A stretch of 64,000 bases of DNA, taken from an uncultured Planctomycetaceae bacterium (GTDB taxonomy: Bacteria > Planctomycetota > PLA2). Positions 3,681 to 46,721 of the stretch are shown one piece after another. The position numbers and the translations under genes were made by a program. The stretch is taken from assembly GCA_964570285.1 (NCBI GenBank), contig CAZMXP010000008.1, positions 36,659 through 100,658 of the forward strand, given 5' to 3'. Numbering within the stretch: the stretch's first letter is position 1; the number at the start of each line of letters is the position of its first letter. Below the pieces are notes generated by a model. That model was not told where the DNA came from. It saw nothing but the letters and a program-made list of their open reading frames with translations, and ran no database searches.

Positions 3681-3696
3681 TTCGCAGGAGTCTCCC

Positions 3697-5019: not shown

Positions 5020-5040
5020 CGCGAGGGCCTCCCGTTCCCC

Positions 5041-8173: not shown

Positions 8174-8214
8174 GGTTCCTTCCTCCGCGCCCGCGGCGCG
8201 CCGCTAACGAGCCC

Positions 8215-10071
8215 TCATCGGCTGGCCCCGTCCCGCGCTTGACGCGCCGCCGCCCGCTCCCCGTGCGTGCGGAACCAGAGCTCGAGCATCATCAGCGTCC
8301 AGATCATGACGCCGTAGTATCCCGCGTGGCCCGTCCGGTGCAGCTCGAGAATCTCGTCGAGGAAGGCGGGACGCACGATTCCGCGCCCGCGCAGCCCGGC
8401 GAGGCAGTCCGAAGCGAGGGCCTGCAGCGGCTCGTGGGTCCGCAGCCAGACGCCGAACGGCAGCCCGAAGCCGTGCTTCTGCTTCCGGAGGATCTTCTCC
8501 GGCAGGAAGTCCGCGAGCGCCCACTTGAAGAACCAGCGGAGCTGGTAGCCCTTCACCTTCAGGTCGGAGGGCAGCCGCGCCGCGAAGGCGACCATCGCGT
8601 CGTCGAGGAAGGGGTAGGCGACCTCCACGCCCGCGAGCCCGCAGGAGCCGTTGACCTTCACGAGGTCGTTGTCCGCGAGCGTGAACTTCAGATCGAGCGC
8701 GAGCAGCCGGTTCAGGCTCGAGTCGGCGTCCGCGCCGTCGTAGACCTCGCGCGCGAGGCGGATCGGCTCCTCGCGGTCCACCGAGGCGAGGAACGAGGGC
8801 TCGAAGACCCGCTCTGCGCCGAGCATGCGGAGCAGCGTGTAGTTGTAGAGCCGGTCGGGCAGGCGCGTGTTCGCCTGCCGGATGTAGCTGCGCGCCTTGC
8901 GCACGAGCGCGAGCCGTTCGCCGAACGGGAAGCGGCGCAACAGCGGCTCGAGGAGCGCGCGGAAGAGGCGCGGCACGCGCCCGTACACGTCGAACACCCT
9001 CTGGCTCGCGTAGCGCTCGTTGCCGCCGAAGATCTCGTCGCCGCCGTCGCCGGCCAGCATCCTGTGGACGCCGTCGTCGGCCGCGAGGCGCGCGCAGAAG
9101 TAGGTCGGCACCGCCGACTCGTTCGCGAAGGGGTTCCCGTGGGCCGCGGCGATGCGCGGGATCGCGGCGAGCACGTCGTCGGGGGTGACGTAGTACTCGT
9201 GGTGGTCGGTCCCGAAGTGGCGCGCCGCCGTCCGCGCGAACTCCATCTCGTCGTAGCCCTCCGCGGCGAACCCGATCGAGTAGGTCTTCGCGGGCCGTCC
9301 GAGCACCTGCGTCAGGATCCCGGCGACGGTCGAGCTGTCCGTGCCGCCGCTCAGGAAGGCGCCGGCCGCGGCGCTGCCGGCCGAGCGCTCCACGGCCCCG
9401 CGCAGCAGCCCGCGGAACTCGCGCTTGAGTTCCTCGAGGGGGGCGCGGCGCCCCCGGTAGACGGTCCGCCCGAAGAGGGCGCGCTCCGTGCGGCCGTCCC
9501 GGACGTGGAGGTATTCGCCGGGCAGCAGGCGCGACTGCCCGCGCAGCACCGAACGGGGCGCGGGAACCTGATGGAAGAAGACGTAGTCGTAGATCGCCTG
9601 CGGATCGACGCCGCCCCCGCCGGGAAGGCAGAGGGGGGAGGAACCGAACAGCAGGCAGCCCTCCTCGCGTTCGAAGTAGAGGGGGAAGCAGCCGCAGCGG
9701 TCGATCGCGAGGAGCGCCTCGGAGCCGTCGGTCCGGAGGATCGCGGCGGCGAAGAGACCCGTGACGCCGGCGAGCAGGCCCGGGCCGCGGTCGACGAAAC
9801 CCTGGGCGAACGCCGCGGCGCCACCCTCCCGTTCCGCGCGCTGGGCGAGGGCGGCGTCCGCGAACGAGGGGCGACCGACGACCGCGACGAGGAGGTCGTC
9901 GCCTTCGTGGAGAGTCGCGTTGCCGTGCAGGGCGGCGGCGGCGAGACCCGCGGCCGGGCCGAGCTTCGTGCGGACCGCCGCCCCGCCGAACGCCCTCGCG
10001 GCCCGCTCGATGCGCGCGGCACCCTCCGACTCGCCGGCGACGCCGCCGACCCACCCTCCGATGCCGCTCAT
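8215..10071 (-). CDS. Asparagine-synthase-family paralog 2, with the nucleophile Cys replaced by Ser.
   Basis: MSGIGGW... aligns to MCGIAG. SGGTDSS PP-loop. Full-length AsnB architecture. Confidence 0.8.
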   Translation of the reverse strand: MSGIGGWVGGVAGESEGAARIERAARAFGGAAVRTKLGPAAGLAAAALHGNATLHEGDDLLVAVVGRPSFADAALAQRAEREGGAAAFAQGFVDRGPGLLAGVTGLFAAAILRTDGSEALLAIDRCGCFPLYFEREEGCLLFGSSPLCLPGGGGVDPQAIYDYVFFHQVPAPRSVLRGQSRLLPGEYLHVRDGRTERALFGRTVYRGRRAPLEELKREFRGLLRGAVERSAGSAAAGAFLSGGTDSSTVAGILTQVLGRPAKTYSIGFAAEGYDEMEFARTAARHFGTDHHEYYVTPDDVLAAIPRIAAAHGNPFANESAVPTYFCARLAADDGVHRMLAGDGGDEIFGGNERYASQRVFDVYGRVPRLFRALLEPLLRRFPFGERLALVRKARSYIRQANTRLPDRLYNYTLLRMLGAERVFEPSFLASVDREEPIRLAREVYDGADADSSLNRLLALDLKFTLADNDLVKVNGSCGLAGVEVAYPFLDDAMVAFAARLPSDLKVKGYQLRWFFKWALADFLPEKILRKQKHGFGLPFGVWLRTHEPLQALASDCLAGLRGRGIVRPAFLDEILELHRTGHAGYYGVMIWTLMMLELWFRTHGERAAARQARDGASR

Positions 10072-10107
10072 CGCGCCTCCTGCGTCATGTTTCGTCCGGT
10101 TGCAAGG

Positions 10108-11880
10108 TCAATCTTGAATCGCGGCGCGCGCGGCATACTCGAAGGAGATCAGGCGCCCGAGCAGGGGGAGCGGCACGCCCGGCCCGCTCCGCAGGGCGTC
10201 GAGGAAGGCCTCGTAGCGGGCACGGTCGAGCAGCGGCAGCGACGCCATCGACGCCGGCGCGAGCCAGTCCCCCGCACCCCCTGCCCTCCATCGCGCGAGC
10301 AGGGCGCCCTCGTGCGGATCGCGCTCGCGCCTCCACCACTTCGCCTTCGCCCGCCGCACCACCGAGGCGGGCCAGCGCAACGCGCCGGGAAGCAGGCGCG
10401 GCAGATGCCTCGCGCGCAGCGGGAGCGGGGGAAAGCCGCTCGCGAGGGGGACCTGCCGCAGCGGCGCCGCAAGGCCGCCGAGGATCTTCCGCAGCAGGTT
10501 GCCGTGGAGCCGCTCGGCCGACGGGATCCGGTAGAGCACTTCGAGGGGCCGCCGGAGCAGCAGCGGCGAGCTGTTGCCCCAGATCTCGTTCGTCGCGCTG
10601 CCGATCGCCCCTTGCCAGCACTGCATGCGCAGGTGCAGGTAGGCGTGGTCGAAGAGCACCGGCAGCGGCTCGCCGCGTCGCGGCGCGAGGGCCGCCTCGA
10701 GCATCGCGCGGTAGTGTGCCGCGGGATCGGGCGCCGCCGGGAGGAAGGGGGGCACGAGCAGCGCGTGGGTGAACCGTCGCAACAGCGCGCCCGCGACATC
10801 GCCCCCCGTCTTGCCGAGGTGCTGCGACGTCCACCAGTAGTTCCGGAAGACCTCGCCGCCGGAGCCGTTCACGCTCATGCCGTACTCCGCCGCATGCGGC
10901 TCGTGGATCGCGGCGATGGCGGCGTATTCGATGGCGTCGTACTCGCCGTCCACCCGGGCGGCCGCGGCGAGCACGCGCCCGAAGTCGGCCTGCGCCTCGA
11001 GGCCGCGCTCGCGCGGCTCGTGCACGAGCTTCAGCCCGAGGCGACGCGCGAGTTCCGCCGCGATGCGCACGTCGGCGTGGCCGGCGTCGCCGGTCACGGT
11101 CACATCGAAGCTGCGGCCGAGTCCGTGGAGCAGGCCGACGACGAGGCGGGAGTCGAGCCCGCCCGTGAGGTCCGGCAGCAGTCGGGCCGACGCGGGCGCG
11201 AAGGCGTCGAGGCAGGATCGGAGCGCCGAGACGAGCTGCTCCGCGCTGGCCGCGCGCTCCCCGGCGCAGGAGGGCGGGACGAGGCGCGCGGCGTCCTCGT
11301 CGATCGCCACACAGCGACCGCCGCGGAACCGGTAGCGCCTTGCGCCCCCGAGGCGCCTCACGCCCACGAAGGGGGTCCGGTCCCCGAAGAGGGTGCCCGA
11401 GCCGAGGAACTCCCAGAACGAGAGGGGGTCGGGGGGCGCGCGCCGGGCGCGGGCGAGCGCGACGGGAGAGGTCCCGAGAAGGAGGCCGTCCTCCGCCTCG
11501 GCGGCATAGACGTGCAGGCGACCGAAGTGGTCGGGCGCCACGATCAGTTCGCCGCTCGCCGTGTCGGCGTAGACGAGCGCATAGGTGCCGTCGAGGCGGT
11601 CGAGCTCCTCGGGCCCCCTCGTTTCGATGAGGCGCAGCAGGGCGGCGTTGTCGTCGAGGCCGCAGTCGGGGTGGTGCCAGCTCCCCGCGGAGAGGAGCCA
11701 GCCGCCCTTCGAGAGGGCCGGAGCGGCACCGGAGCCGTTGAGGCGTGCGAACATGACGAACCCCGGCCCCTCGGCGGCCACCCGGAGACCTTTCTCCTCC
11801 GTGATGTGCCGGCGCGCGCGCTCGAATCCCTCGGGAGCCGGGCGTCCCGGCGACGGCTGCTCGACGAGAAAGGCACCCAC
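10108..11880 (-). CDS. Asparagine-synthase-like paralog 3 (synthetase/PP-loop domain; no recognisable N-terminal glutaminase nucleophile).
   Basis: ...LTGGLDSRLVVGLL... PP-loop-like motif and overall AsnB_C similarity. GTG start. No Cys near the N-terminus. Confidence 0.65.
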   Translation of the reverse strand: MGAFLVEQPSPGRPAPEGFERARRHITEEKGLRVAAEGPGFVMFARLNGSGAAPALSKGGWLLSAGSWHHPDCGLDDNAALLRLIETRGPEELDRLDGTYALVYADTASGELIVAPDHFGRLHVYAAEAEDGLLLGTSPVALARARRAPPDPLSFWEFLGSGTLFGDRTPFVGVRRLGGARRYRFRGGRCVAIDEDAARLVPPSCAGERAASAEQLVSALRSCLDAFAPASARLLPDLTGGLDSRLVVGLLHGLGRSFDVTVTGDAGHADVRIAAELARRLGLKLVHEPRERGLEAQADFGRVLAAAARVDGEYDAIEYAAIAAIHEPHAAEYGMSVNGSGGEVFRNYWWTSQHLGKTGGDVAGALLRRFTHALLVPPFLPAAPDPAAHYRAMLEAALAPRRGEPLPVLFDHAYLHLRMQCWQGAIGSATNEIWGNSSPLLLRRPLEVLYRIPSAERLHGNLLRKILGGLAAPLRQVPLASGFPPLPLRARHLPRLLPGALRWPASVVRRAKAKWWRRERDPHEGALLARWRAGGAGDWLAPASMASLPLLDRARYEAFLDALRSGPGVPLPLLGRLISFEYAARAAIQD

Positions 11881-12304: not shown

Positions 12305-12410
12305 CGAAGGCTCCGATAAAGGCAACCCCGGGGGAACCCGGAGGACGCAAAGCTATTAGGGCCCGTTCCCCTTCAGTGCGAAGGGGCGGGGCAGCCAGCT
12401 ACCGAAGAGT
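12305..12410 (+). promoter_or_regulatory. c-di-GMP-I (GEMM) riboswitch-like 5' leader, copy 1, upstream of lipoprotein 12475.
   Basis: Conserved GEMM blocks AAAGGCAAcCC, a GNRA hairpin CCGGG-GGAA-CCCGG, GACGCAAAGCUA, a P3 hairpin CCCCUUC-AGUGC-GAAGGGG, and a 3' ...AGCUACCGA. Collinear with the Vibrio Vc2 aptamer as recalled. A hairpin plus GGAGG RBS follows. Confidence 0.65.
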
Positions 12411-12474: not shown

Positions 12475-15400
12475 ATGTATTCGATGACGCGCCGGGCGCT
12501 GGCCCGGCTCATCCTGGGGGCCGCCGTGCTCTGCGGCTGCGTCCCGTTCGCGGAGACGACCCCGTCCGGGTCGGCCTCCTCGGTCGGGCTCGTGGTCGAT
12601 GCGGCGTCGCTCTCGGTAGCCGAGGGAGGCACGGCCGTGCTGGGCCTGCGGCTCTCGGAGAATCCCGGTCGTGCCGTCGCGGTGACGGCGAAACTGACCG
12701 GATCGACCGGTCCCTTCGCGATCACGGAGGGTGCGAGCCTTCCGTTCGGCGTCTCGGACTGGGACACCGTGAAGTTCGTCCGCGTGCTCTCGAGCACGGA
12801 CACGAACACGACCCACGACACGACGACGCTGAGGATCGAGGTGGACGGCCGCTTCTTCCTGAGCGTCGGAGTCACCGAGGTGGATGGAGGCACGAGCGTG
12901 CCCCCGCCCGAGCCGCCTCCCGCCGAGGAGCCCCCGGCCGAGGAGCCGCCCGCTCCCGCCCCGGTCCCGCCGGCACCCGTTCCGCCCGTGCCGCCCGTCG
13001 ATCCGGGGGAGCCGCAGGAGGGCGTCACGCTGACGGTGAAGGATGCCTCGGGCATCGGCGCGATCGACTATCCGGTCACCGCGATCATCCCCGTCAGCTA
13101 CGGGATCTACCAGGACACGTCCCGGTTCCGCATCGTGGACGGCCAGGGGAACCCGGTGGCGGCCCAGTTCGAGGTCCTCAACCGCTGGCCGGTGCGCGAC
13201 AACAGCATCCGGCACGTCGTCGCCCACTTCCAGGCTTCCGTCGGCGCCGCCAGCAAGGCCTACTACGCCTTCCAGACGAAGGGCGCCGGGCCCGCGCCGC
13301 AGAAGGCGGTCCGCGTGACCGACGGTTCGGGCGTCGTCACGGTGGACACGGGGGCCCTCAGGTTCACGATCAAGAAGAGCGGCTTCAACCTCTTCGATGA
13401 GGTCTGGCTCGATACGAACGGCGACGGCAGCTACGCCGCCTCCGAGCGCATCGTCGCGCCGAACGGCGATGTCGGCGCCACGCTCACCGATCGCCACGGC
13501 AACAAGCAGCGCGCCAGCGACCGGACCGACCTGCGGGTCGTGATCGAGGAGAGCGGACCGATGCGGAGCGTCATCCGCGTGAGCTCGCTGAGCAAGTTCT
13601 TCAGCGCGAGCGACCACCGCCACGGCTTCGCCGCACGCATCTACGCCTACGCCGGCAAGTCCTTCGTCAAGGTGGACTACCAGCTCCAGAACTCGGCGAA
13701 GAACGCCCGCTACAGCGCCCCTCTCTACTTCGACGACGTGTCGCTGACGCTCCGGCCTTCGCTGACGAGCCCCACCGCCCGCTTCGCGGCGGGCGCGGGC
13801 AACGTCTGGTCGGGCGGCGTCAGCAGCGGCCGCTACCTGCTCCAGAACTCGCTGACCGCGACGACGGTGAATCCCTCGGGAGGAGGCTCCGCCCTCCTCA
13901 CCGGGACCAACGTCGCCGCCGAGGCGTCCTGCGCGTGGGGCGACCTGTCCGACTCCCAGCGCGGCGTCTTCGTCACGGTCCGCCACATGGCGGAGATGTG
14001 GCCGAACGCGCTGGAGGTCTCGCCGGACAACACGGTGACCGTCGGCCTCTGGCCGAAGTACAGCGCGCAGTACCACAACGGCGCGATGACCGAGTCGGGA
14101 CTCTACTGGCTCGAGGACATGCAGCAGGTCTACAAGGAGTCGCTCATCTACTTCCACGGGGCGAACGTCGCCTCGACCGAACTGGACCGTCTCGCGAAGA
14201 CCTTCCAGTACCACCCGATCCCCTTCGTGCCGATCGCGGAGTACGCACGCACGAAGGTCACCCTCGACCTGGGCGGGATCGTGCCGATCACCGAGCCGGT
14301 GGGCGGTACCGACACCCGTCGGATCCTCTTCACGCCTTCCTACTACCGGCAGGAGTCCGTCACGCCGGGGAACACCCGCTACAACTTCGGCTGGATGAAC
14401 TTCCTCGGCGACGTGGCGCGCAAGCGTCCCGGCGGCGCGGGCGGCATCTTCTACAGCTCGAGCCGGATCATCGCGACCGAGCGGGTCGACGAGTGGCTGA
14501 CCGGCGAAGGCGCCGCGATCGGCGAGCTCAACTGCCGTCCCCAGTGGATCGCGGAGTACAAGTATCCCGACGACTACGCGCTCCTCCAGCCGTCGCAGGA
14601 TCCCTACGGCTCGCGTTCGTGGCGCGCGCACGTCACGGGCAGCGAACCCGACCTGCCCAACGTCGTCGACTACCTCCCCGGCACCGGCCACGGCGGCTGG
14701 TCGCCGCGGGACAACCAGCACGGCTGGTTCTACCACGTCGAGGAGTTCTACAACCTCTCCGCGAATCCTTGGATCCGCGACTGGTACGAGTTCATCGGCG
14801 AGTTCCGCAAGACGGAACGCTCCAACCCCGGCCTGTCGAACTGGAGCGTGCTCTCCAAGCAGGGCTGGGAGTCCGTCCGCGGGGAGGCCCACGCGTTCGC
14901 GCATGCGATGCAGGCCTTCCGCGTCACGGGCAACAAGTCGATCATCGAGTGGGCCCGCATGCGGCTCGACAGCTTCGAGTCGCGCTTCGACCCCGAGTGG
15001 GGCATGTTCATGAGCGGCGGAGACTGGGACAACAAGGGCTCGGTCTTCGAGCACGGCTACCTGACCAAGGCGCTGAGCCAACTCTACGAGGAGGCGGAGA
15101 ACGGCGACCGCGAGATCCAGGACCGGACCTTCCACCTCGTGTGGGGGGCCATGGCCTGGAACGACGGCCATGCCACCTTCGGCTACCACGTCACCAACCG
15201 GAACGCCACGGGCTACCCCTACTCCAGCGCCGGCTCGGCGCTGGTCACGGGCGATCCCCACGCCTGGGTGGCGTGGAAGTTCGGCGCCCCCCAGTACCTG
15301 GCCACGGTGAACGGCTACATCGACACGGGCCTGAACGGCGGCAGTCCGCCCTACCACGACATCGCCGACCTGAGGAACTGGACGGGCGGTGCGTGCGGTC

Positions 15401-15768
15401 GGGTGACGCAGTGGGTCCGGAAGTATCCGCCCGTGGCGGACGGCCCTGCGAAGGTGTCCAACCTCTCGGCCCGCACGGCGAGCGGCAAGGTGGAGATCAG
15501 CTTCACGACCCCCGCCACCGCGACGCGCGTGCATGTCGTCTACTCCACGCTCCCGATCTCCGCGACCTACACCAAGGACGCGGCGAAACGGAATCCGTGG
15601 GGCTGCAAGGCGGTCCCGAACACGCTCGTCTGCACGCCCGGTGCGACCCAGTCGCTGCAGTTCGGCGGCGCGCCCTCGGGCAAGACGATCTACGTGGCCG
15701 TCATCATGTTCAACGCGCAGGGGCACATGAGCCCGCTCTCCAACGTGGCGACGGTGACGGCACCGTAG
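12475..15768 (+). CDS. Large secreted lipoprotein (1097 aa) with a Pro-rich linker and multiple beta-rich domains; possibly a polysaccharide-lyase or hydrolase, function unknown.
   Basis: Signal peptide with lipobox LCGC. PPPEPPPAEEPP... linker. RBS GGAGGTAGGAG 8 nt upstream. Long, uniform-codon-usage ORF. Confidence 0.8.
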   Translation: MYSMTRRALARLILGAAVLCGCVPFAETTPSGSASSVGLVVDAASLSVAEGGTAVLGLRLSENPGRAVAVTAKLTGSTGPFAITEGASLPFGVSDWDTVKFVRVLSSTDTNTTHDTTTLRIEVDGRFFLSVGVTEVDGGTSVPPPEPPPAEEPPAEEPPAPAPVPPAPVPPVPPVDPGEPQEGVTLTVKDASGIGAIDYPVTAIIPVSYGIYQDTSRFRIVDGQGNPVAAQFEVLNRWPVRDNSIRHVVAHFQASVGAASKAYYAFQTKGAGPAPQKAVRVTDGSGVVTVDTGALRFTIKKSGFNLFDEVWLDTNGDGSYAASERIVAPNGDVGATLTDRHGNKQRASDRTDLRVVIEESGPMRSVIRVSSLSKFFSASDHRHGFAARIYAYAGKSFVKVDYQLQNSAKNARYSAPLYFDDVSLTLRPSLTSPTARFAAGAGNVWSGGVSSGRYLLQNSLTATTVNPSGGGSALLTGTNVAAEASCAWGDLSDSQRGVFVTVRHMAEMWPNALEVSPDNTVTVGLWPKYSAQYHNGAMTESGLYWLEDMQQVYKESLIYFHGANVASTELDRLAKTFQYHPIPFVPIAEYARTKVTLDLGGIVPITEPVGGTDTRRILFTPSYYRQESVTPGNTRYNFGWMNFLGDVARKRPGGAGGIFYSSSRIIATERVDEWLTGEGAAIGELNCRPQWIAEYKYPDDYALLQPSQDPYGSRSWRAHVTGSEPDLPNVVDYLPGTGHGGWSPRDNQHGWFYHVEEFYNLSANPWIRDWYEFIGEFRKTERSNPGLSNWSVLSKQGWESVRGEAHAFAHAMQAFRVTGNKSIIEWARMRLDSFESRFDPEWGMFMSGGDWDNKGSVFEHGYLTKALSQLYEEAENGDREIQDRTFHLVWGAMAWNDGHATFGYHVTNRNATGYPYSSAGSALVTGDPHAWVAWKFGAPQYLATVNGYIDTGLNGGSPPYHDIADLRNWTGGACGRVTQWVRKYPPVADGPAKVSNLSARTASGKVEISFTTPATATRVHVVYSTLPISATYTKDAAKRNPWGCKAVPNTLVCTPGATQSLQFGGAPSGKTIYVAVIMFNAQGHMSPLSNVATVTAP

Positions 15769-20635: not shown

Positions 20636-21743
20636 GCCCGCGACGGCGCAACTCCTTCAGGTGGTCTTGGCCGAAGCCCGCCGCGTCCGGCGTGTAGGCG
20701 CCCGCGCGCAACTCCCCTCGGGCCATCGCCGCCGCGACGACCGCGGTGGGATAGCCGGTCGTCTGCTCCATCGCGGTAAAGCCCGTCGCCGGGTCGTGGA
20801 ATTGCAGCATCTCGTAGCGCACGCCGCGGCCTCGCCGGTCGGTGGCCTCGACGCGCAGGATCGCGAGGTCCTTCACGTCGGCCTCGAGGAGGCGCGGGCC
20901 GACGATCGTGTGGAACGCCTCGCGCGGCACGAGGCCGTCGACCGGATCAAGGGAGAGCAGCCCGAGATCGATCATCGCCCGCACCTTCTCGAAGTGGCCG
21001 CGGTAGCGGACCGTCTTGTACTCGTAGGTCTCGAGCCTGCCGCGGTGGCGCCACGGCGCGGTGCTCGTGCCGCCGCTCGTGAAGAAGGCCTCGAGCGGTC
21101 CCAAGCGCTTCGGCCCGTCGTAGGGCTCGACCTCGGTGAATGCCTCCATGCGCCTGAGCCTGCCGTCGCGCAGGATGACCGCCTCTCCCGTGTATTCGTT
21201 CGTCAGCCCCTCGATGCTGAAGAGCAGGCTGTAGCCCAGCGGCCCCCTCGGGACCGTCGGCAGTCCGCCGCAGCGGATGCGCACGTGCCGCGCGCCGTCG
21301 ACCTCGTCGATGGCGATCGCGGCGAGCACGTTGCCGAGCCCGGGGGCGAGGCCGCAGTCGGGAATGATCGACACCCCCGCGCGGCGCGCCGCGCGATCGA
21401 GCGTGAGCGCCTCCTTCACGAGATCGGTGTTGCCCCCGAGGTCGCAGAAGTGGACCTTCGCTTCCAGCGCGGCGCGCGCCAGCGCCGGGTTGAAGCGGTA
21501 GGGCATCGCGCTGACCGCGGCGGCGTGGCCGCGCAGCAGGGCCACGGCATCGGCGCCCTCGAGTCGCCGGGCGACGGCCCTGACGGGAGTGCCCGGCACG
21601 AGGGCGCGCAGCCGGCGCGCACCGCCGTTCACGACCCGTGCCTCGGCGTCGACGAGCGTCACCCCCCCCGCGCCCCCCCACTTCATCAGGTCGTAGGCGA
21701 TCGCGAGGCCCTGGCGGCCCGCGCCCAGCACCGCGTACTTCAT
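20601..21743 (-). CDS. Saccharopine dehydrogenase-like NAD(P) oxidoreductase.
   Basis: True start MKYAVLGAGRQGLAIAYDL (Rossmann) at 21743. The upstream part of the long ORF is GC-frame readthrough. Confidence 0.75.
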   Translation of the reverse strand: MKYAVLGAGRQGLAIAYDLMKWGGAGGVTLVDAEARVVNGGARRLRALVPGTPVRAVARRLEGADAVALLRGHAAAVSAMPYRFNPALARAALEAKVHFCDLGGNTDLVKEALTLDRAARRAGVSIIPDCGLAPGLGNVLAAIAIDEVDGARHVRIRCGGLPTVPRGPLGYSLLFSIEGLTNEYTGEAVILRDGRLRRMEAFTEVEPYDGPKRLGPLEAFFTSGGTSTAPWRHRGRLETYEYKTVRYRGHFEKVRAMIDLGLLSLDPVDGLVPREAFHTIVGPRLLEADVKDLAILRVEATDRRGRGVRYEMLQFHDPATGFTAMEQTTGYPTAVVAAAMARGELRAGAYTPDAAGFGQDHLKELRRRGLRIRRASPGGR

Positions 21744-22639
21744 TTCGCGCGCCTCGTGGCGGCCTCGGGCGGCGGCTGGCAGCGCGGCGCGCCGACGACC
21801 GCCTGCAGCAGGATCAGCGTCGTCGCCTTCTCGGCGGGCAGCCCGAGCACCGCATAGCCGCCGTTCGGGATCGTGAGCGTGCGGCGGGCGGTGGCCGCGT
21901 GGAGTTCGGGTTGCTGCACCTGTCCCCTCATGGCGCCGACGGCGACCTCGCGCACCGCGATCGGACGCACGATGTCGGAGACGACGAGGTCGCAGTCGAA
22001 GGTCAGGAAGTTGCGGTCCGCCGAGAGCGCCGGGGTCCAGCGGAGCGTCGCGCCCACGGTGAGGCTTCCGATGGCCGGATCGACGATGCCGCCGTCGCCG
22101 ACGCGCAGTTCGGAGACGTAGGAGATCCGGCGCTGCACGCGCGCCTCGGCGGGGCAGCGCTCCCGGCCGGTGACGGCGATCCAGCCGAGCGTCTCGCTCG
22201 CGGGCTCGTCGGCGATGCGCTCCCAGAGGCGCCCCCACGCCCCCCCCTCCTCGCCGACCCGTTGGCCGCGCCGCTCGCCGAGCAGCGCCTCCGCGAACGC
22301 GTGCGGCACCGAGACCGCGTAGAGGTCGACGCCGACGTTGACCCCCTCGCCGCCGATCAGGGCGTCGCGCGTGCGCTCGACCCGGAGGAGGTCGTCCGCG
22401 CGGGCGGTCGCCGCTTCCGCCGCGAGGTCGGCGAGCCAGCGCGCCGTATCGTGGCCGCGCCGGGCGACCTCGCGCAGCACGTCGCGCGCGTAGGCCGCGT
22501 CGTCGAGGAGCCGCAGGCCCGCCGCGCGCCGCTCCGCGTCGGGCGAGAGCAGCATCGCCGCGCACTCCTCCGGCAGCGGCGGCGGGAGGTCGGCGCAGAC
22601 GAGTGCGGCGAGGAGCGCGAGGGGGATGGCGCGTCGCAT
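21740..22639 (-). CDS. Secreted hypothetical protein.
   Basis: MRRAIPLALLAALVCA... signal peptide. The stop overlaps the downstream ATG (ATGA). Confidence 0.45.
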   Translation of the reverse strand: MRRAIPLALLAALVCADLPPPLPEECAAMLLSPDAERRAAGLRLLDDAAYARDVLREVARRGHDTARWLADLAAEAATARADDLLRVERTRDALIGGEGVNVGVDLYAVSVPHAFAEALLGERRGQRVGEEGGAWGRLWERIADEPASETLGWIAVTGRERCPAEARVQRRISYVSELRVGDGGIVDPAIGSLTVGATLRWTPALSADRNFLTFDCDLVVSDIVRPIAVREVAVGAMRGQVQQPELHAATARRTLTIPNGGYAVLGLPAEKATTLILLQAVVGAPRCQPPPEAATRRAK

Positions 22640-22679
22640 CGGCCCAGTGGGCCGCGTTCGCGTCATCCCCCGGTCATGG

Positions 22680-23669
22680 CTAGTGGGGCGCCGCCTTCAG
22701 CCCCTCGAGCATCTGCTTCGCCCGCTCGGCGGTCTTGAGCCCCTCGTGCTTCTTCAGGAACCTCTCGAGCTTGTCCGCCACCTCGGCGATCTTCTTCGCG
22801 CGGTTGCCGGCCTCGGCCTTCTCCGCGGCGATCTTGTCGAGCTCCTTGCTCGCCGACATCTCCTTCTTCACCGCGGGGTCCGCCTTCAGCTCCTTTTCAT
22901 GCGTGTCGGCCCATGTCGCGTCGACCGTCCCCTTGAAGTGCTTGCTCACGAGGTCGAGCGCGGCGAAGACGCGGTCGTAGCTTCCGAGCTTCTCGCCCTC
23001 CTCGACCTCGCGCTTCCAGTAGGCGCGGTGCTTCTCGACGCGGCCGATCAGGTAGTGCGCGTCGGCCTCGGCCTCGCGCAGGCCGTCCTTCGCGAGCGAT
23101 TCCGCCGCGCCGAGATCGCCCTTCGCGAACGCGGCCGACGCGGACTTCAGCGCCGCGTCGAGGGGACGCAGGTAGAAGTCCTTCACCTTCTTCAGGTGCT
23201 TCTCGATCTCGCCCTCCGTCAGCGACGCGGGGTGGCCCTCCCACGCGACGGTTCCGTCGGGCGCGACGAGGTAGGCGTGCGGGATGCCGCCGCTGCCATA
23301 GGGCGTCTGCTCGGAGATCAGCCCGACGCTATAGGTGATGCCCTTCTGCGGAACGAAGGGCTCGATCTTCTCCGCATCCTCGCTCGTGATCGCGAGGATC
23401 CTCAGCCCGTCTTTCGCGAAGCTCGCACGGAGCTCGTTGAGGTGGGGGATCGCCCCCACGCAGGGGGGTCACCACGTCGCCCAGAACTCGACGAGCAGGA
23501 GCTTCCCGCGCAGGTCGGCAACGGAGTCGCCCTCGCAGGCGTTGAGCCACTTCGCCACCTTGAAGTCGGGGGCTTCCTTGCCCCGGAGGGACTGCCACTC
23601 CGCGCGAGCCGGACTGGCCGCGAGAAGCGCAAGAGTCGCAACGATTGCCAGTGTGCGCATGGGGCGCAT
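22680..23669 (-). CDS. Periplasmic TlpA/ResA-like thioredoxin-fold protein with an in-frame TGA at the first Cys of the CxxC motif (W-[TGA]-P-P-C); a selenocysteine-protein candidate, with a Lys/Glu-rich helical C-terminal extension.
   Basis: ORFs 23469..23822 and 22680..23459 are in the same frame, separated only by TGA (23469-23471). Read-through gives ...LLLVEFWATW-U-PPCVGAIPHLNEL... A GUGGGGG-CGAU-CCCCCAC hairpin begins 10 nt after the UGA. Signal peptide MRPMRTLAIVATLALLAA. Confidence 0.55.
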
Positions 23670-23706
23670 TCTACAACGGCGCGTCCCTTCGCGCCCCGCG
23701 ACGCCG

Positions 23707-25071
23707 TCACCGCGGGCCGGCCCCCAGCCGGGACTCGGGCAGGCGGATCTCCGCGTCGAAGGCCTCGTTGTCGCGCCAGCCGGCCACCGCGATCGAGCCC
23801 TTCGCGCCGCCGACGGCGGCATTCAGTTCGTCGAGGCTGCGGATCGCGCTCTCGCCGCCCCGCCCGAGGACGTCCCCGCGCCGGATGCCCGCCTCGGCGG
23901 CGGGGCTGCCGGGCGTGACGCCGCGCACGAGCACGCCCTCCGTGGCCGCGTCGAGCCCGAGCCAGCGGCGCAGGTCGGGGGTCAGGTCCACGCAGTCGAG
24001 GCCGAGCGCCTCGGCGGAGGCGGGGGCCGCCTTCGAGGTCGCCCGGTCCTCGGTCGTCACGGAGACGCGGCGCCCGTCGCCCAACTCCACCTCGATGCCC
24101 TCCCCGACGCGGGAGCAGGCAAGCACCCGGGAGAGGTCGGACGCGCTCTCGCACGCCTCGCCGTTCACCGAGACGACGATGTCGCGCTGCTTCAGCCCCG
24201 CACGCTCCGCCGGCGATCCGGCCAGTACCCGCGAGAGCACGACCCCCTTGCCCTTGACGTCGCCGGCGACGACGCCGACGAACGCGCTGCGCACGCGCCC
24301 GAACTCGTCGAGATCGGCCAGCAGCCGGTGGATGAGCGGCCCCGGAAGAAACGTGGACTCGGTGCGCGGCGCCGCGACGGCGGCACTCAGTCGCAACTGG
24401 TCCTCTGCCCACTGCTGCCGCAGCGCCCGCGTGAGCGCGGCCGCCTGCACAGCGCGCGACGCGGCCGCGAAGCGGGTGCCGCGGGGAGCCGGCACGCGGA
24501 GCGCGAGCAGCGTCCCGCCGGGCCCCAGCAGCGCCACCGCCTCCCCCGGCGCCCCCTCCACATCCACGCGCGCCGCCGCGCGCGAGCAGCCCGAGATCAT
24601 CGCCAGCGACGGCGAGTCGCCATACGCGACCGCCAGCGTGCCCGGCTGCAGCCTCGCCCAGTCGCCCTCCGGCGACAGGCCCTCCCCCTCCGGCAGCGTC
24701 GCGATGGCGATGCCGAGGTCGGCGTCGGAGAATGCCACCGTGGCACTCTCCTGCTTGCCGGCGATGCTCACCGTCACCGTCCGGCCGGCGGCGCCGGCCG
24801 ACGCGGGCAGCGCGAGGTACTTCGAGCGCAGGCGCAGGCCGTGGGTCGGCTCCGTCGGGCCAACACGCAGTTCGGGTGAGAGCACGTACATGCCCGGCTG
24901 CTGACCCGTAGGGACAAGGCCGAGGGAGACGTGCGTGCCGGCGAGTTCGACGACCGCCCCCTCCGCGCGGACGACGATCCGGCGCATCTCCTCGCCGAGC
25001 CGTTCGAGAAGGGACTCCTGCGCGCGCGCGGAGGAGGCGAGTACGAGGAGCAGGAGGGCAAGCGTACGCAT
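23707..25071 (-). CDS. HtrA/DegP-like periplasmic protein with two PDZ domains (protease domain divergent).
   Basis: Signal peptide MRTLALLLLVLASSARA. Two PDZ-like segments: ...GVVLSRVLAGSPAERAGLKQRDIV... and ...GVLVRGVTPGSPAAEAGIRRGDVL... No clean GNSGGP. Confidence 0.6.
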   Translation of the reverse strand: MRTLALLLLVLASSARAQESLLERLGEEMRRIVVRAEGAVVELAGTHVSLGLVPTGQQPGMYVLSPELRVGPTEPTHGLRLRSKYLALPASAGAAGRTVTVSIAGKQESATVAFSDADLGIAIATLPEGEGLSPEGDWARLQPGTLAVAYGDSPSLAMISGCSRAAARVDVEGAPGEAVALLGPGGTLLALRVPAPRGTRFAAASRAVQAAALTRALRQQWAEDQLRLSAAVAAPRTESTFLPGPLIHRLLADLDEFGRVRSAFVGVVAGDVKGKGVVLSRVLAGSPAERAGLKQRDIVVSVNGEACESASDLSRVLACSRVGEGIEVELGDGRRVSVTTEDRATSKAAPASAEALGLDCVDLTPDLRRWLGLDAATEGVLVRGVTPGSPAAEAGIRRGDVLGRGGESAIRSLDELNAAVGGAKGSIAVAGWRDNEAFDAEIRLPESRLGAGPR

Positions 25072-25079
25072 GGGAACTC

Positions 25080-25439
25080 CTAGCGAAGAACGAGGTTCTC
25101 GAAGACGACCGGATGGGGTTCGGAGGCGGGGACCGGCTCGGCCGCGGCGGTCGGCCTGACGAAGGCGAGCGTGACGAGCACGCCGGCGGCGAACGCCGCC
25201 GCGTAGCGGAGCAGCGCCAGCGCGGGCCTCGCGCGCCAGCGCGCCCAGATGCGGGCGGGAAGTTCGGGGGGGGCGGGGGGGACCGGATAGGCCTCGAGCA
25301 GCAGCGCGTGTTCGCGCCTCGCCGCCGCGGCGAGCTGCGGCTCGCGCGACATCAGAGACTCCGCCTCGAGGGCGCCCTCCCCGTCGAGCAGGCCGTCGAG
25401 ATAGTCGTGGATGAGGGAGAGGCGTTCGGTTCGGTTCAT
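25080..25439 (-). CDS. Anti-sigma factor (single TM).
   Basis: Immediately downstream of, and overlapping (ATGA), the ECF sigma gene. Carries a TM segment ...LALLRYAAAFAAGVLVTLAFV... Confidence 0.55.
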   Translation of the reverse strand: MNRTERLSLIHDYLDGLLDGEGALEAESLMSREPQLAAAARREHALLLEAYPVPPAPPELPARIWARWRARPALALLRYAAAFAAGVLVTLAFVRPTAAAEPVPASEPHPVVFENLVLR

Positions 25440-25951
25440 GGCCGGTCCTCGCGGAGAAGGGGGGAGAGGCGGTGCGCGAGAATCTCTCGCGCGCGGCGGA
25501 AGCGCTCCTTGGCGGTGCGTTCGCAGACGCCGAGAGCCATGGCGACCTTCTGGTAGGGCAGTTCATGGTGGGCGCGCAGCAGGAAGGCCTCGCGCAGGTC
25601 GCACGGCAGGCGGGCGACCTCCAAGCGGACGCGCTCGCCGATCTCGCGCGCCTCGGCGGCGGAGGGGCCGTCGCCGCCCTCGGGCGCGGGCGCCTCGTCC
25701 GGGGGCAGGGGCCCCGGCCGACGCCTGCGGGCGCCGTCGCGGGCGAGGTTGGTCGCCACGCGGAAGAGCCATGCGCCGAGGGTGCCGTTGACGCCGTGGA
25801 TCGAATCGCGGTGGCGGAGGAAGCGGAGGAAGGTCTCCTGCGTGAGTTCGTCCGCCAGCGCCGCGTCGCCCGTGAGGCGCGCGAGATAGGCGTGCACCGC
25901 CCCCCCGTACTCGGCGTAGATCGCGTCGAACGCGGCGTCCATCCACCCCAA
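25436..25951 (-). CDS. RNA polymerase ECF sigma-70 factor.
   Basis: ...ELTQETFLRFLR... region 2 and ...LPYQKVAMALGVCERTAKERFRRAR... region 4 HTH. Confidence 0.85.
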   Translation of the reverse strand: MGWMDAAFDAIYAEYGGAVHAYLARLTGDAALADELTQETFLRFLRHRDSIHGVNGTLGAWLFRVATNLARDGARRRRPGPLPPDEAPAPEGGDGPSAAEAREIGERVRLEVARLPCDLREAFLLRAHHELPYQKVAMALGVCERTAKERFRRAREILAHRLSPLLREDRP

Positions 25952-26005: not shown

Positions 26006-26413
26006 GTGCATCTCCTCTGCGAGACCTTCATCCCTCTGCTGGCGGTGGGGCTACTCTGGGCGGGATTCCGCTCGTCCCGCCCACCGTGGGAGATCTATGG
26101 GGGGTGCCTCGCCGCCGCGGGCCTCGTCTACCTGCTGACCTGGGCCGACCGCCGGCAAGGCTGGTGGGCCGGGTGGGGCCTCGACTTCAGCACCCACGCG
26201 GGGATCGCGACGGTGCTCGTCGTGGCTCTCTCTTTCCATGGCAGGCGCTGGCTTGCCGCGGCGGCGTCCACGCTCGTCGGCTACGCGCTCGTCATGGTCG
26301 ACCTCGGCTACCACACGTGGACCGACCTTGGCTCCTCCGTCGCCGCGGTCGTTCCGCTCGCGCTCGGTTGTGCGCTGGCGGCGCGGGCGGCACGGAGCCG
26401 CCCGCGTGCCTAG
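26006..26413 (+). CDS. Small hypothetical membrane protein.
   Basis: Four predicted TM segments; no recognisable motifs. Confidence 0.35.
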   Translation: MHLLCETFIPLLAVGLLWAGFRSSRPPWEIYGGCLAAAGLVYLLTWADRRQGWWAGWGLDFSTHAGIATVLVVALSFHGRRWLAAAASTLVGYALVMVDLGYHTWTDLGSSVAAVVPLALGCALAARAARSRPRA

Positions 26414-26961
26414 CCGAGGAGCATCAGCACCATGGAGACCCCGACGGGGATCGCCAGGTTGTCGAGTTTGGAGCCCGAGAGCGCCTCGATCACCGTCGCG
26501 GCGGCTCCGCCGGCGAGGCTCAGCGGCCAGCCGAAGAAGATGCGGCACCCGAGCGTCGCCGCGACGAAGCAGGCGAGACTGCCGGCGAGAGAGACCTTCC
26601 CCCAGCGCGGCGACTCGACGTTGGAGCCGACAAGGGCGGCCGAAGGGTCCCCCAGCGCCAGCGCGAGAATCCCGGCCGAGGCGCAGGCGGGAGGGGTCAG
26701 CGTGACGGCGAGGGCGCATCCCGCGAAATAGAGGGTCGAGCCGTTCCAGCCGTGCACGTCCTTCTTGTCGAGGATGAGCTTCAGCCAGCGCAGGAAGGCG
26801 GCTTGCAGCGCGGGCGATCGCGCCCGCGCCAGGTCGATCGCCCCCAGAAGGACGACGAGCACCCAGAGGAGCGTCGCGGCGAGCCACCGATCCAGAGGAG
26901 GGAGCCGGTAGACCAGCACGACGAGAATGCCGGAGGCGTGGAAGAGCTTGCGACTGAGCAC
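26410..26961 (-). CDS. Polytopic membrane protein, possibly of the DGK1/VTE5/dolichol-kinase-like family.
   Basis: Several TM helices; ...HGWNGSTLYFAGCALAV... Weak family assignment. Confidence 0.4.
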   Translation of the reverse strand: MLSRKLFHASGILVVLVYRLPPLDRWLAATLLWVLVVLLGAIDLARARSPALQAAFLRWLKLILDKKDVHGWNGSTLYFAGCALAVTLTPPACASAGILALALGDPSAALVGSNVESPRWGKVSLAGSLACFVAATLGCRIFFGWPLSLAGGAAATVIEALSGSKLDNLAIPVGVSMVLMLLG

Positions 26962-35306: not shown

Positions 35307-36461
35307 TCAGAAGAAGGCGGACTCCGACTCGACCATCGTCAGGAACCAGTTGTCGAGCGAGTAGGCCTCCTCGGGCAGCGCCTTCGTCCGCGAGATCATC
35401 AGTTCGTAGCCGTTGGAACGCCGGAAGCCGGCCGAGCGGCACGCCGCGCCGATGTGCGGGTCGGAGGTGAGCACCTCGAGCACGTCGGCGCGCTCGCGCG
35501 CGGCGAGGCGGAGGAGGTGGTAGACGGCGGAGCGGGCCGCCTCGTCGGAGGCCGGTCGCGCGAGGTCGAGGACGCGGCAGACGCGGACGTCGCGGTACTC
35601 CTGGCTTCCGACGCGCTCGTGGGTGGCGACGCGCAGCAGGAAGTGGCCGGCGGTCGCTCCCGAGCCGTCCAGCACGCGGAAGGCGCGCCCGCGGACCGCC
35701 GGATTGCGGCGCACGAAGCGCAGCTTCCAGTTGAGGTAGGCGCAGCCCCGCCGCACGTGGGCGCGCGGCGCCCCCGCCGCGTCGACCTCGGGAACATCCC
35801 CGAAGGAGTCCACCTCCTCGAGGGAGAGGCCGGCCGCGGAGGGACGCAGGCGCGCGCGCTGGAGGAGCGACCAGGAGCGCAGCAGGGGATTGGCGCAGGC
35901 GGCGGCCGCCCATGCGAGCGGAGCGCTGCGCACGTGGCGACGCAGGATCGGGCCGCTGCGGAGCGGCATCACCCAGCGGGCCGCGAGGCCCACGTTCGCC
36001 ATGCGGAGCGCGGTCATGAGCCGGTTGGCGTAGGGGGTGGCCCCGTAGGCGCTGAAGGGCAGGTTCCGCGCCGCAAGATGCGCCAGCAGCTCCCGCAGCA
36101 GAAGCCCGCCCACGCCGGCGGCGCGGCGGTCGGGGTGCGAGAAGAGGCTGTGGCCCGTGACGCAGGGATACTCCCGCCCGCCGATGCGCAGCGGCTGGCT
36201 GATCAGCGCCATGCTCGCGACCCGGACGCCGTCGATGGAGAGCGCCGTGGCGACAGGCACGTCGGCGGCCAGGTCGGGGTGGGAGCGCACGAGTTCCCAG
36301 ATCGCCCCCGGCATGAGCTCGACCGCGGCGGGATCGGCGGGCCAAAGGAAGGCCTCGCCGCGCTCCTCGAGTTCAGGGCGCGTGAACGTCTCGAATTCGG
36401 TCTTCATGGCGGCCGGGCGCGGCCCGGGAGCGGCGGGGTCGTCGATCCGTTCAGGAGACAC
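35307..36461 (-). CDS. GNAT-like acyltransferase-family protein (putative N-acyltransferase paired with ACP and FkbH).
   Basis: Overall GNAT-like composition; position immediately downstream of the ACP gene. Weak motif support. Confidence 0.45.
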   Translation of the reverse strand: MSPERIDDPAAPGPRPAAMKTEFETFTRPELEERGEAFLWPADPAAVELMPGAIWELVRSHPDLAADVPVATALSIDGVRVASMALISQPLRIGGREYPCVTGHSLFSHPDRRAAGVGGLLLRELLAHLAARNLPFSAYGATPYANRLMTALRMANVGLAARWVMPLRSGPILRRHVRSAPLAWAAAACANPLLRSWSLLQRARLRPSAAGLSLEEVDSFGDVPEVDAAGAPRAHVRRGCAYLNWKLRFVRRNPAVRGRAFRVLDGSGATAGHFLLRVATHERVGSQEYRDVRVCRVLDLARPASDEAARSAVYHLLRLAARERADVLEVLTSDPHIGAACRSAGFRRSNGYELMISRTKALPEEAYSLDNWFLTMVESESAFF

Positions 36462-36699
36462 CCTTGGAGGCGAGGCAGCGGAAGAGGTCGCCGACGTGCT
36501 GCATCCCCGCCAGTTCCGCGGTCGTAAAGGTGACGCCGAGCTTCTCCTCGAGTTCCATCACGATCACGATGTTATTGACGGAATCCCAATTGTCGACGTC
36601 CTTGGCGGCGAGGGCGTCGTGCACGACCAGATCCGGCTTCCCGAGGACGTTCCGGAAGATCTCCTGGACACGGTCCCGGACGGACGTTTCGGTCCTCAT
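36451..36699 (-). CDS. Acyl carrier protein.
   Basis: 82 aa, ...DVDNWDSVNNIVIVMELEEKLGV..., with a Ser in a DS motif at the helix-2 N-cap. ATG at 36699 overlaps the FkbH stop. Confidence 0.7.
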   Translation of the reverse strand: MRTETSVRDRVQEIFRNVLGKPDLVVHDALAAKDVDNWDSVNNIVIVMELEEKLGVTFTTAELAGMQHVGDLFRCLASKGVS

Positions 36700-38480
36700 C
36701 GGATGCCCTCCTGCGGGACCTTCAGCGAGACCCGGATCGGCAGCGGTTCGGGAGAGTGCCGCTCGACCTCGAGGCTGAAGCGCTGCACGTCCCCGGAACT
36801 CCCCTCTTCCGCGAATCCCATGCGGGGGAAGAGGTCGGCGACCATCTTGTTCTTGGAGCTGGGGCGGTACTGGCCGACGACGCGGGTGCAGCCCAGCTCG
36901 CGCGCACGCTCGCAGAGGAGCGTGATCGTCAGCTCCTCGACCTTGCGGCCGAGAACGCGGCAGCTCATCACCCAGGTGTCCACGACGAGGTCGGTGCCGT
37001 CGCGCTCGGCCACGACGCAGACGACGATGCCGTTGTCGCCCAGCCGGTCGAGCAGCCGGATCGTGAAGGTGAGATGGCGCTCCGACGCCGCGAACCCGGC
37101 GAGGGCGGCATCCCCGTGGCGGTAGGTCGTCAGGTTGAACTGGTTGCTCCGCTGGATGAGCTGGGCGACGCGGGGAAGCGAATAGCGGCTGAACGGGGCG
37201 ACCTCGGCGACCATGTCGAGGTTCTTGAGGTAGGACTCGAGGTCGGCGAACGAGTCGCGAAGCTCCACGCGCTTCACGTTCGCCTTGTACATGCCGACGC
37301 GCTCCAGGTCCTCCTCGGTGAAGTCGGGGGTCTCGAAGAGGTTCCAGCGGGCCAGCGCGCTCACGAACTCGGCGGGATCCTCGGGCATGTCGGGGACCTG
37401 GACCTCCGGCAGCGCCGTGCGGACGAGGTCGCGCTCGAACGGCGAGTCGTCGAGGAAGACGAACGAGTCGAGCCCGAGATCGAGCATCTCGCGGATCCGC
37501 CGGATGTTGCCCGCCTTGTTCTCGTAGTTCGCGATGAACGCGACGATCGCATCCTCCTTCAGCACCATCTCGGGGTGCGTGCGGAAGGCCTCGCGCGCGG
37601 TCTCCTCGTGGTTCTTGCTGCAGACCGCGAGCAGGATGCCGCGGTCCTTGAGCTGCGCGATCGACCGCTGGAAGCGCTGGAAGGCGAGGCCGACGCCGGC
37701 GTCCCCGAGTTCGATCCCGTCCACGCCGTCGTCGCCGAGGATGCCGGACCAGAGCGTGTTGTCGAGGTCGAGCACGACGCACTTCGCCATCGCGCCGAGC
37801 CGCGCGAGGATCACGTCGCTGACGACCTTCGCGAGAGGCGGCAGGAACTTCGGCGAGAGCGCCTGCTTCGCCTGGCACCAGAAGCGTTCGCTCAGCCACT
37901 CCCGCTTGCCGTGGTAGGCGGCCTGGTAGTCGTTGTCGACCACGGCGACCCCCTTGCGCGACGCGGACGCCTCCGCGAGGAGGTCGTTGATGCGCCGCAC
38001 CGCGAACGGGAACGACGCGGGGCACTGCGACGTGTAGTTGCCGAACGGCCGCTCCAGCGGCAGGCAGTAGTTGTGGTGGATGACGGTGACGGAGCCGCCC
38101 TCGAGCAGGCGGTCCCAGTGGTGCACGATCTCCGCCGCGACCGCGCTCGCGAACCCGGGCTTGTCCTGCGCGTCGGCCCACCGGTCCTGCAGCGTCTGCA
38201 CCGCCTGGAAGAGCACGACAAAGACGGGACGATGCGCGTAGAGCCCGCTCCGGGGATCGAGGATCTCCTGGCTGATCTGCCGGAACTCCGCCTCGTAGAT
38301 GTGCGGCCAGCAGCCGCGCAGCTTGAGGACCGCCGCGAGGGTCTGCGTGTAGTTCTGCGTCGCGCAGTCCCCGAGGACGGCGATCCTCGACGAACGCGCG
38401 CACTTCTCCGGGGTGGCTTCGGCCGCCTGCGCGGCCAACTGGGGAATGGAAAGCTCCGCGAGCTTCCAGGCCTGCATCAT
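36696..38480 (-). CDS. FkbH-like HAD-superfamily IIIC phosphatase/acyltransferase.
   Basis: ...KCVVLDLDNTLWSGILGDDGV... (HAD motif I, DxDxT); ...FLDDSPFER... (motif III). C-terminal GNAT-like part. Start MMQAWK with GGAGGA RBS. Confidence 0.7.
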   Translation of the reverse strand: MMQAWKLAELSIPQLAAQAAEATPEKCARSSRIAVLGDCATQNYTQTLAAVLKLRGCWPHIYEAEFRQISQEILDPRSGLYAHRPVFVVLFQAVQTLQDRWADAQDKPGFASAVAAEIVHHWDRLLEGGSVTVIHHNYCLPLERPFGNYTSQCPASFPFAVRRINDLLAEASASRKGVAVVDNDYQAAYHGKREWLSERFWCQAKQALSPKFLPPLAKVVSDVILARLGAMAKCVVLDLDNTLWSGILGDDGVDGIELGDAGVGLAFQRFQRSIAQLKDRGILLAVCSKNHEETAREAFRTHPEMVLKEDAIVAFIANYENKAGNIRRIREMLDLGLDSFVFLDDSPFERDLVRTALPEVQVPDMPEDPAEFVSALARWNLFETPDFTEEDLERVGMYKANVKRVELRDSFADLESYLKNLDMVAEVAPFSRYSLPRVAQLIQRSNQFNLTTYRHGDAALAGFAASERHLTFTIRLLDRLGDNGIVVCVVAERDGTDLVVDTWVMSCRVLGRKVEELTITLLCERARELGCTRVVGQYRPSSKNKMVADLFPRMGFAEEGSSGDVQRFSLEVERHSPEPLPIRVSLKVPQEGIR

Positions 38481-38664
38481 GTCCTCCGGGTCAGAAAGCA
38501 ACCCCCACAACCATCGGCATTTGCGCCACGCGAGTATAGGGCGCGAGACGGCCCCACGCCCCATCCTGGGGAGGGCCGACCAGAAGCCGCGCCGTCGGGG
38601 GGGCGCGGGGGGCGTGGCCCGGAGTGCCGCCGCTCCCGCGACCACGCCCGGCCCTGAAGCGCGG

Positions 38665-46717: not shown

Positions 46718-46721
46718 AGCC

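Follow-up and report, generated by a model that had tools for sequence, protein, structure and literature searches.

A candidate selenocysteine-containing TlpA-like thioredoxin with a helical C-terminal domain in a planctomycete metagenomic contig

Selenoproteins of the UxxC peroxiredoxin-like (Prx-like) and TlpA-like types form established families (PMC1794560, PMC13188914). The catalogued families that contain selenocysteine (Sec) include UxxC Prx-like oxidoreductases, thiol:disulfide interchange proteins, UGC proteins of the TlpA family, and proteins of the VPGUxxT type (PMC1794560 Table 1; PMC13188914 Table 1). In the present work, a stretch of 64,000 nucleotides (nt) from an uncultured Planctomycetaceae bacterium (assembly GCA_964570285.1, contig CAZMXP010000008.1, positions 36,659 to 100,658 of the forward strand; hereafter, the window) was analyzed, in which the reading frame of a TlpA-like thioredoxin is interrupted by TGA at the active site. 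Judging from the sequence, the region 23660..22680 of the minus strand very probably represents one gene for an exported selenoprotein with Sec at residue 64 (U64).

The interrupted gene and its predicted product

The complete candidate gene (22680..23660, minus strand) is read from the ATG at position 23660 to the TAG at 22682..22680 and comprises 326 codons plus TAG, with TGA 23471..23469 as the single internal stop. It encodes a predicted signal peptide, a thioredoxin fold with the motif U64-P-P-C67, and a helical C-terminal domain. In the initial annotation, the region was described as two open reading frames (ORFs), 23469..23822 and 22680..23459, lying in one frame and parted by the TGA, and translation of the minus strand gave the same picture. 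The 9 nt between the ORFs (CCC CCC TGC) are left over because the ORF listing resumes at the next start codon, the GTG at 23459. The upstream limit at 23822 needs correction, since the ATG at 23660, followed by the signal peptide MRTLAIVATLALLAASPARA, is the likelier start. The GC content of the window is 71.7%, and that of third codon positions (GC3) is 0.90–0.95 on either side of the TGA, its phase being unbroken across this codon. In addition, neither a frameshift nor a second in-frame stop was found in 23660..22680, so that the earlier dismissal of a frameshift stands. Public gene calls break the gene into ORFs of 63 and 259 amino acids (aa), the latter without a domain call.

The sequence around the stop codon reads KLLLVEFWATW-TGA-PPCVGAIPHLNEL, where FWATW-TGA-PPC places the TGA at the first Cys position of a CxxC motif, as had been proposed at the outset. 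If Sec is inserted, the peptide across residue 64 would be FWATW-U-PPCVGAIPHLNELR. A six-frame scan of the 64 kb detected two stops with coding-like flanks, TGA 23471..23469 and a stop at 39117. The latter is an ordinary gene end after which the next gene begins.

Inspection of the N-terminal sequence MRTLAIVATLALLAASPARA|EW by eye shows positively charged, hydrophobic, and A-x-A regions, with the A-x-A site located before EWQS (23601..23660, minus strand). This segment is kept in the homologous loci L029 and L031 and resembles a cleavable signal peptide, which suggests that the protein is exported. According to the Pfam search, in which Cys replaced the stop, residues 27–116 match AhpC-TSA, Redoxin, Thioredoxin, and Thioredoxin_8; the scores were 52.6 bits for PF00578 (AhpC-TSA, cutoff 26) and 40.5 bits for PF08534 (Redoxin, cutoff 26.6). 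The thioredoxin fold occupies residues 24–160, and the cis-Pro loop residue P127 is invariant. The best sequence matches in the PDB were ResA, DsbE/CcmG, TlpA, DipZ-C, StoA, and Etrx. The fold comparison for the thioredoxin domain rests on the full-length Cys homologue P0029, whose AlphaFold2 model (predicted local distance difference test score, pLDDT, 88) gave target-normalised TM scores of 0.8–0.9 with ResA and DsbE in Foldseek. These results agree with the original description of the product as a TlpA-like exported thioredoxin.

As for the C-terminal domain (residues 161–326; 22683..23180, minus strand), it was modelled from the window's own sequence. The AlphaFold2 model (pLDDT 94.6) shows an all-helical, TPR-like domain of approximately 165 aa with eight helices, rich in Ala, Lys, and Glu. 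Lys and Glu together make up 25% of the domain and 30% of its final 110 residues. Thus, the Lys/Glu-rich helical extension noticed earlier is present, whereas its length had been put too low, at about 110 aa. A fold search of the PDB with this domain found nothing significant, the TPR domains of YbgF and BamD being weakly similar; Pfam TPR matches are present in several Cys homologues. A more definite similarity was found with the NF041382 profile, where residues 149–318 align with profile positions 173–347 (E 3.3e-14).

A sister subfamily of approximately 509 aa (proteins P0004, P0006, P0008, P0009, and P0016) has the same plan of signal peptide, thioredoxin-like domain, and helical domain, with the addition of a C-terminal cyclophilin domain (PF00160). 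In these cyclophilin-fused proteins the redox motif is wholly lost, as in FWS---PKDAAP.

TGA and cysteine codons among the homologues

A comparison with homologues had been suggested as a check on the Sec reading. A protein search returned many close matches of approximately 259 aa that start just past the CxxC motif and have no Pfam call; these are ORFs cut by the same stop codon. More distant full-length matches carry WCPPC. The codons were compared in 31 homologous loci, namely, 28 from a genome scan, all of them metagenome-assembled genomes (MAGs), and three close relatives with identities of 87% and 94%, taken from independent ENA and Logan assemblies. The UGA codon of residue 64 (23469..23471, minus strand) aligns with TGA in 25 of the 31 loci (22 of the 28 scanned and all three close relatives) and with TGC or TGT in the remaining six; neither TAA nor TAG was found at the catalytic codon in any of the 31. 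The TGA loci share 30–94% identity and belong to three clades of Planctomycetota, including Planctomycetia and Phycisphaeraceae, while four of the Cys-codon loci are from Verrucomicrobiota, one is from Planctomycetota, and one is from Chloroflexota. Among the scanned loci, the TGA motif occurs as W-TGA-GPC, T-TGA-GPC, Y-TGA-GPC, W-TGA-PPC, and W-TGA-NPC. This distribution of TGA and Cys codons is the standard signature of a Sec/Cys pair and argues strongly against a pseudogene, against an error in the sequencing, and against a reassigned genetic code. The initial annotation would have taken a TGA common to all close homologues, together with a lack of selB/selC in the genome, as a sign of a pseudogene; sharing of this kind in fact argues for Sec.

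The tblastn alignments continue through the stop codon in the homologues. Over the 63 codons that precede the TGA, comparison of the window with close relatives gave 12 synonymous and three nonsynonymous changes in one case and six and three in another, and these codons are under purifying selection. According to a profile search of 1.84 billion representative sequences, proteins with this two-domain architecture form a large family; most full-length members (320–355 aa) have WC[GPA]PC, and a minority stop at the motif.

Two further observations concern the active site. The MAG OFTM341 holds two diverged paralogues, L002 and L005, both with TGA at the active-site codon. At 23466-23468, the window has CCC (U-P-P-C), whereas L029 and L031 (87% and 94% identity), like most Sec forms, have GGC (U-G-P-C); this recent GGC to CCC change also abolishes GGGCC/GGCCC pairing around the UGA.

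Candidate SECIS elements, Sec machinery, and rival explanations

The bacterial model of the selenocysteine insertion sequence (bSECIS) describes a loop of 3–9 nt on a stem of 4–16 bp, with G in one of the first two loop positions, a distance of 16–37 nt from the UGA, and a free energy (dG) of ≤ −7.5 kcal/mol (PMC13188914 Fig 2). The hairpin GUGGGGG-CGAU-CCCCCAC (23442..23459, minus strand) falls within all these limits (PMC13188914). The stem comprises 7 bp, the loop has 4 nt with G as the second, and the dG is −12.4 kcal/mol; the hairpin follows the UGA after a 9-nt spacer, its loop beginning 16 nt after the UGA, and its sequence is identical in L029 and L031. The perfect hairpin reported earlier 3' of the UGA is therefore real and suitably placed, with a chance frequency of about 5%, and the window holds a plausible SECIS, although the hairpin alone is weak evidence for one. 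A second local hairpin, GAGCUC-CGUGC-GAGCUU (23419..23435, minus strand), is common to L001–L004, L029, and L031; its loop lies 39 nt after the UGA, just beyond the 16–37 nt range.

Hairpins at the equivalent place were found in L002, L005, L024, L025, and L027; those of L001, L003, and L004 are weaker. They differ in sequence and are formed in different registers relative to the constant Pro-His-Leu codons. Heterogeneous SECIS elements within one family are normal in bacteria. A family-wide consensus structure, with 73% of positions paired as compared with 33–50% in slid controls, was evaluated as a universal SECIS and rejected, because its 3' helix is equally kept in the Cys forms and its two middle helices are complete only in a marine group; the 3' helix is a by-product of coding.

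In that marine group of Planctomycetota (L006–L012), a fully paired two-tier hairpin extends from approximately 15 to 72 nt after the TGA, the codons for Ile-Pro-His-Leu-Asn pairing with those for Lys-Phe...Gly-Leu and the apex lying more than 37 nt from the UGA. It is partly formed elsewhere, with some compensatory changes in other clades. This structure may represent either a SECIS of a non-canonical type or an effect of lineage; it was not taken as the SECIS of the family because the 3' helix is kept in Cys forms and L006–L012 are closely related. Apparent covariation is also seen in a 7-bp hairpin spanning the codons for I-[IV]-G-V-T-x-E (alignment A3, columns 89–107; 74–92 nt after the TGA), which the Cys forms preserve equally well. 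This hairpin is a side effect of coding and calls for care when SECIS elements are sought in the family.

A number of observations weigh against Sec insertion at this codon. At 5% of arbitrary positions of the window (72% GC), an equally good hairpin is present in the allowed range, and the value is 1.5% if the loop must lie 16–21 nt away; hairpins of ≤ −7.5 kcal/mol occur at 24% of background positions. Shuffling of synonymous codons gave p ~0.04–0.08 for the hairpin, at which a competing CCCCC/GGGGG pairing also exists. The Rfam search found no match to a SECIS family even at E ≤ 10, and a single SECIS structure common to the family was not found across the homologues. The Sec and Cys forms do not differ in excess RNA structure after the UGA (mean z −0.13 vs −0.25, synonymous shuffles). 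In addition, no selA, selB, selD, or tRNA-Sec was detected in the 64-kb window or in approximately 507 kb of related loci: ARAGORN found no tRNA-Sec in the window or the 28 loci, a SelD motif search by regular expression over the ~507 kb gave no match, and the Pfam analysis of the remainder of the window revealed no sel genes. With four genes to be found in a genome of several megabases, their absence from the sampled stretches is to be expected. Finally, the Sec-type homologue L018 has an additional in-frame TAA (10085-10087) seven codons upstream of the TGA, this copy being probably damaged or an assembly error.

The damaged appearance of L018, together with the split of the locus in public gene calls and the lack of visible Sec machinery in the window, would agree with a pseudogene formed by a nonsense mutation in a Cys-type TlpA-like gene. 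This is nevertheless highly improbable, being effectively refuted by the conservation pattern: TGA, and never TAA or TAG, stands at the catalytic Cys codon in 25 loci of such different identity, the codons on either side of it are under purifying selection with no frameshifts, and neither side shows any loss of the GC3 coding signal. The presence of the same TGA in independent NCBI, ENA, Logan, and JGI assemblies of close and distant relatives leaves hardly any room for a sequencing or assembly error at a TGC or TGT codon, even though the sequence comes from a metagenome-assembled contig and TGA differs from either codon by one base. Genome-wide reassignment of UGA to a sense codon, for which no supporting sign was found, can be set aside altogether. 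TGA terminates 40 of the 49 called genes and is thus the usual terminator in the window, and only one TGA has a coding signal on both flanks; any recoding must therefore be site-specific.

It is also unlikely that the UGA is passed without Sec, either by a near-cognate tRNA (Trp, Cys, or Arg) or by termination and restart at the GTG at 23459 to give two polypeptides. The position of this GTG 9 nt downstream of the UGA, the statistically weak SECIS support, and the fact that the Sec machinery is unverified for the genome of the window are in favor of such passage. However, the product of a restart would have neither the signal peptide nor the redox motif, whereas the two halves of the gene are conserved jointly. 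Alignment of UGA with a catalytic Cys is a hallmark of Sec, with no precedent for Trp or Arg (PMC13188914), and related Planctomycetes have selA/B/C/D (PMC4807772), full sets being possessed by the planctomycetes P1, P2, Gemmata, and Isosphaera (PMC4807772 S8).

For a selenoprotein encoded by 23660..22680, the following mode of action may be proposed. The UGA at 23471..23469 would be decoded as Sec by SelB with Sec-tRNASec, SelB being recruited by a downstream hairpin in the mRNA, for which 23459..23442 is the best candidate. The signal peptide would carry the protein over the cytoplasmic membrane, and the mature protein would most likely function in the cell envelope as a thiol:disulfide reductase. 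On the model of ResA, CcmG, and TlpA, the U64 selenolate may attack a disulfide or sulfenate of the substrate, C67 may resolve the selenenyl-sulfide intermediate, and a membrane shuttle of the CcdA/DsbD type may re-reduce the enzyme. The helical domain probably docks a partner or substrate.

Genomic context and relation to known families

According to GC3 phase and Pfam analysis, the minus-strand gene order is a sigma factor of the extracytoplasmic function (ECF) type, a 119-aa ORF, a PDZ protein, the selenoprotein gene, a 308-aa protein, and a saccharopine-dehydrogenase-like gene. The sigma factor noted in the initial annotation was readily recognized (171 aa; 25436..25951, minus strand) by the Pfam domains Sigma70_r2 and Sigma70_r4_2 and by TIGR02937 (68.1 bits, cutoff 42.9). 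The 119-aa ORF (25080..25439, minus strand) overlaps the sigma gene by 4 nt and contains one hydrophobic segment; it has no Pfam match and a weak match to NF010501, putative anti-sigmaE (E 2e-4). It is a putative single-pass anti-sigma factor, the assignment being a weak one. The DegP-like PDZ protein of the earlier description is a predicted exported protein of 454 aa (23707..25071, minus strand) with two PDZ domains (Pfam PDZ_6, PDZ_2, and PDZ). The DegP likeness concerns the C-terminal half of DegP/HtrA, with collinearity to DegP from the PDB over residues 242–423 and a weak HhoA match extending to residue 105; no trypsin or protease domain was detected in the Pfam search, and TIGR02037 scored 82.9 bits against a cutoff of 416. 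The 308-aa protein (21740..22666, minus strand), which is predicted to be exported, begins 14 nt after the stop codon of the selenoprotein gene and is syntenic in L029 and L031; it has no match in Pfam or NCBIfam. A hairpin between the PDZ gene and the selenoprotein gene was not significant, and no promoter-like or terminator-like site was found within the operon.

Relatives sharing at least 87% identity retain this gene order, and L001–L005 do not. Since it is conserved only in close relatives, the link to the ECF cassette is lineage-specific. In distant relatives, the selenoprotein gene has as its conserved upstream neighbour the gene of a multi-pass membrane protein of 183 aa without a family match (26410-26961, minus strand, in the window; L001:8225-8767; L004:4552-5097). 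The lineage of the window seems to have acquired the sigma/anti-sigma/PDZ cassette by insertion between the genes of the 183-aa protein and the selenoprotein. That the selenoprotein gene follows those of an ECF sigma factor, a putative anti-sigma factor, and an HtrA-like PDZ protein suggests that it may be induced by envelope stress.

The wider window is a region of polysaccharide and envelope biosynthesis. An envelope polysaccharide locus (1-11880 and 45626-52831) contains several GT4 glycosyltransferases, a polysaccharide deacetylase with DUF3473, a FemAB-like acetyltransferase, a Wzy-type ligase, three tandem asparagine-synthase-like genes (6173-11880), a flippase, UDP-GlcNAc 2-epimerase, and rmlABCD. 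Two c-di-GMP-I riboswitch aptamers above the Rfam gathering score were identified on the plus strand at 12311-12406 (55.3 bits) and 43343-43437 (52.7 bits). Each is located just upstream of a gene for a large protein of secreted type; the first gene (12475-15768) encodes a PcRGLX-like domain, and the second (43502-45259) encodes Big_7 and Kelch domains. In addition, FkbH-like, acyl-carrier-protein, and MaoC-dehydratase genes (36451-39084, minus strand) adjoin a MacB-type ABC exporter and form a small lipid or polyketide-like cassette.

Reading the locus as a single selenoprotein gene would restore an exported redox enzyme from two mis-annotated ORFs (63 aa and 259 aa) and would mark the organism as a Sec user. 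The TlpA/Prx-like selenoproteins would also gain a well-populated clade of Planctomycetota that has abundant Cys counterparts. Such a clade could serve for the comparison of Sec and Cys in thiol-disulfide chemistry of the envelope and for studies of SECIS variability in bacteria. The existing picture of Sec biology is unchanged, and gene callers routinely split this known class of selenoproteins in two. The same fate is seen in candidates from planctomycete P1, described as 'thiol-disulfide isomerase-like thioredoxin' and AhpC/TSA (PMC4807772, S9 Table), which, in a comparison by description only, belong to the same phylum and protein class and likewise appear in the annotation as two neighbouring genes divided at TGA (PMC4807772). 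For two P1 candidates, bSECISearch detected no SECIS (PMC4807772 S9).

Among the characterized proteins, ResA, CcmG (DsbE), and TlpA (PDB 4nmu, 1st9, 2b1k, and 1jfu) are the best matches to residues 24–160; they are exported and have a CxxC motif opening helix 1 and a cis-Pro. They contain Cys instead of Sec, lack the C-terminal helical domain, and act in operons for the maturation of cytochrome c or Cu centres. The scores of the window protein are far under the NCBIfam equivalog cutoffs for ResA (subfamily model, 71.6 vs 170), DsbE (43.6 vs 123), and TlpA (42.3 vs 230), and therefore orthology and substrate are not established. No NCBIfam model, including NF041382 and NF041054 discussed below, reaches its cutoff for this protein.

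The Prx-like selenoproteins of Geobacter, Syntrophus, and Desulfotalea (PF00578, UxxC; PMC1794560 Table 1, PMC13188914 Table 1) have the same AhpC-TSA/Redoxin fold with Sec first in UxxC. They have abundant Cys homologues and were predicted by the same Sec/Cys-pair logic as the window protein, which differs from them in the additional helical C-terminal domain of approximately 165 aa, the motif WATWU[G/P]PC, and its distribution in Planctomycetota. The VPGUxxT type 1 proteins (NF041382) have a homologous helical C-terminal domain and the same plan, an N-terminal thioredoxin-like Sec domain followed by approximately 170 helical aa, whereas their N-terminal domain and motif differ from those of the window protein with its WATWUPPC; the NF041382 score was 52.9 bits against a cutoff of 350, the C-terminal domain alone being matched. 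The ResA-like WAxxUGC proteins (NF041054; PMC13188914 Table 1) share the TlpA-like fold, the position of Sec just after WAxx, and a long architecture (354 aa), but their motif is U-G-C as compared with U-P-P-C in the window protein and U-G-P-C in its relatives (28.4 bits, cutoff 300).

A more specific proposal, advanced tentatively and judged rather doubtful as a whole, is that these proteins form a distinct subfamily without a curated model, in which an exported Sec-TlpA domain is joined to a TPR-like domain of the VPGUxxT type to make an envelope factor that both holds and reduces its substrate. In the window it would be wired to the ECF sigma factor and HtrA-like protein, and its SECIS elements would be heterogeneous, including the structure of L006–L012. 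Taken in terms of the families compared here, the window protein represents an uncurated subfamily of a known kind of selenoprotein and not a new kind.

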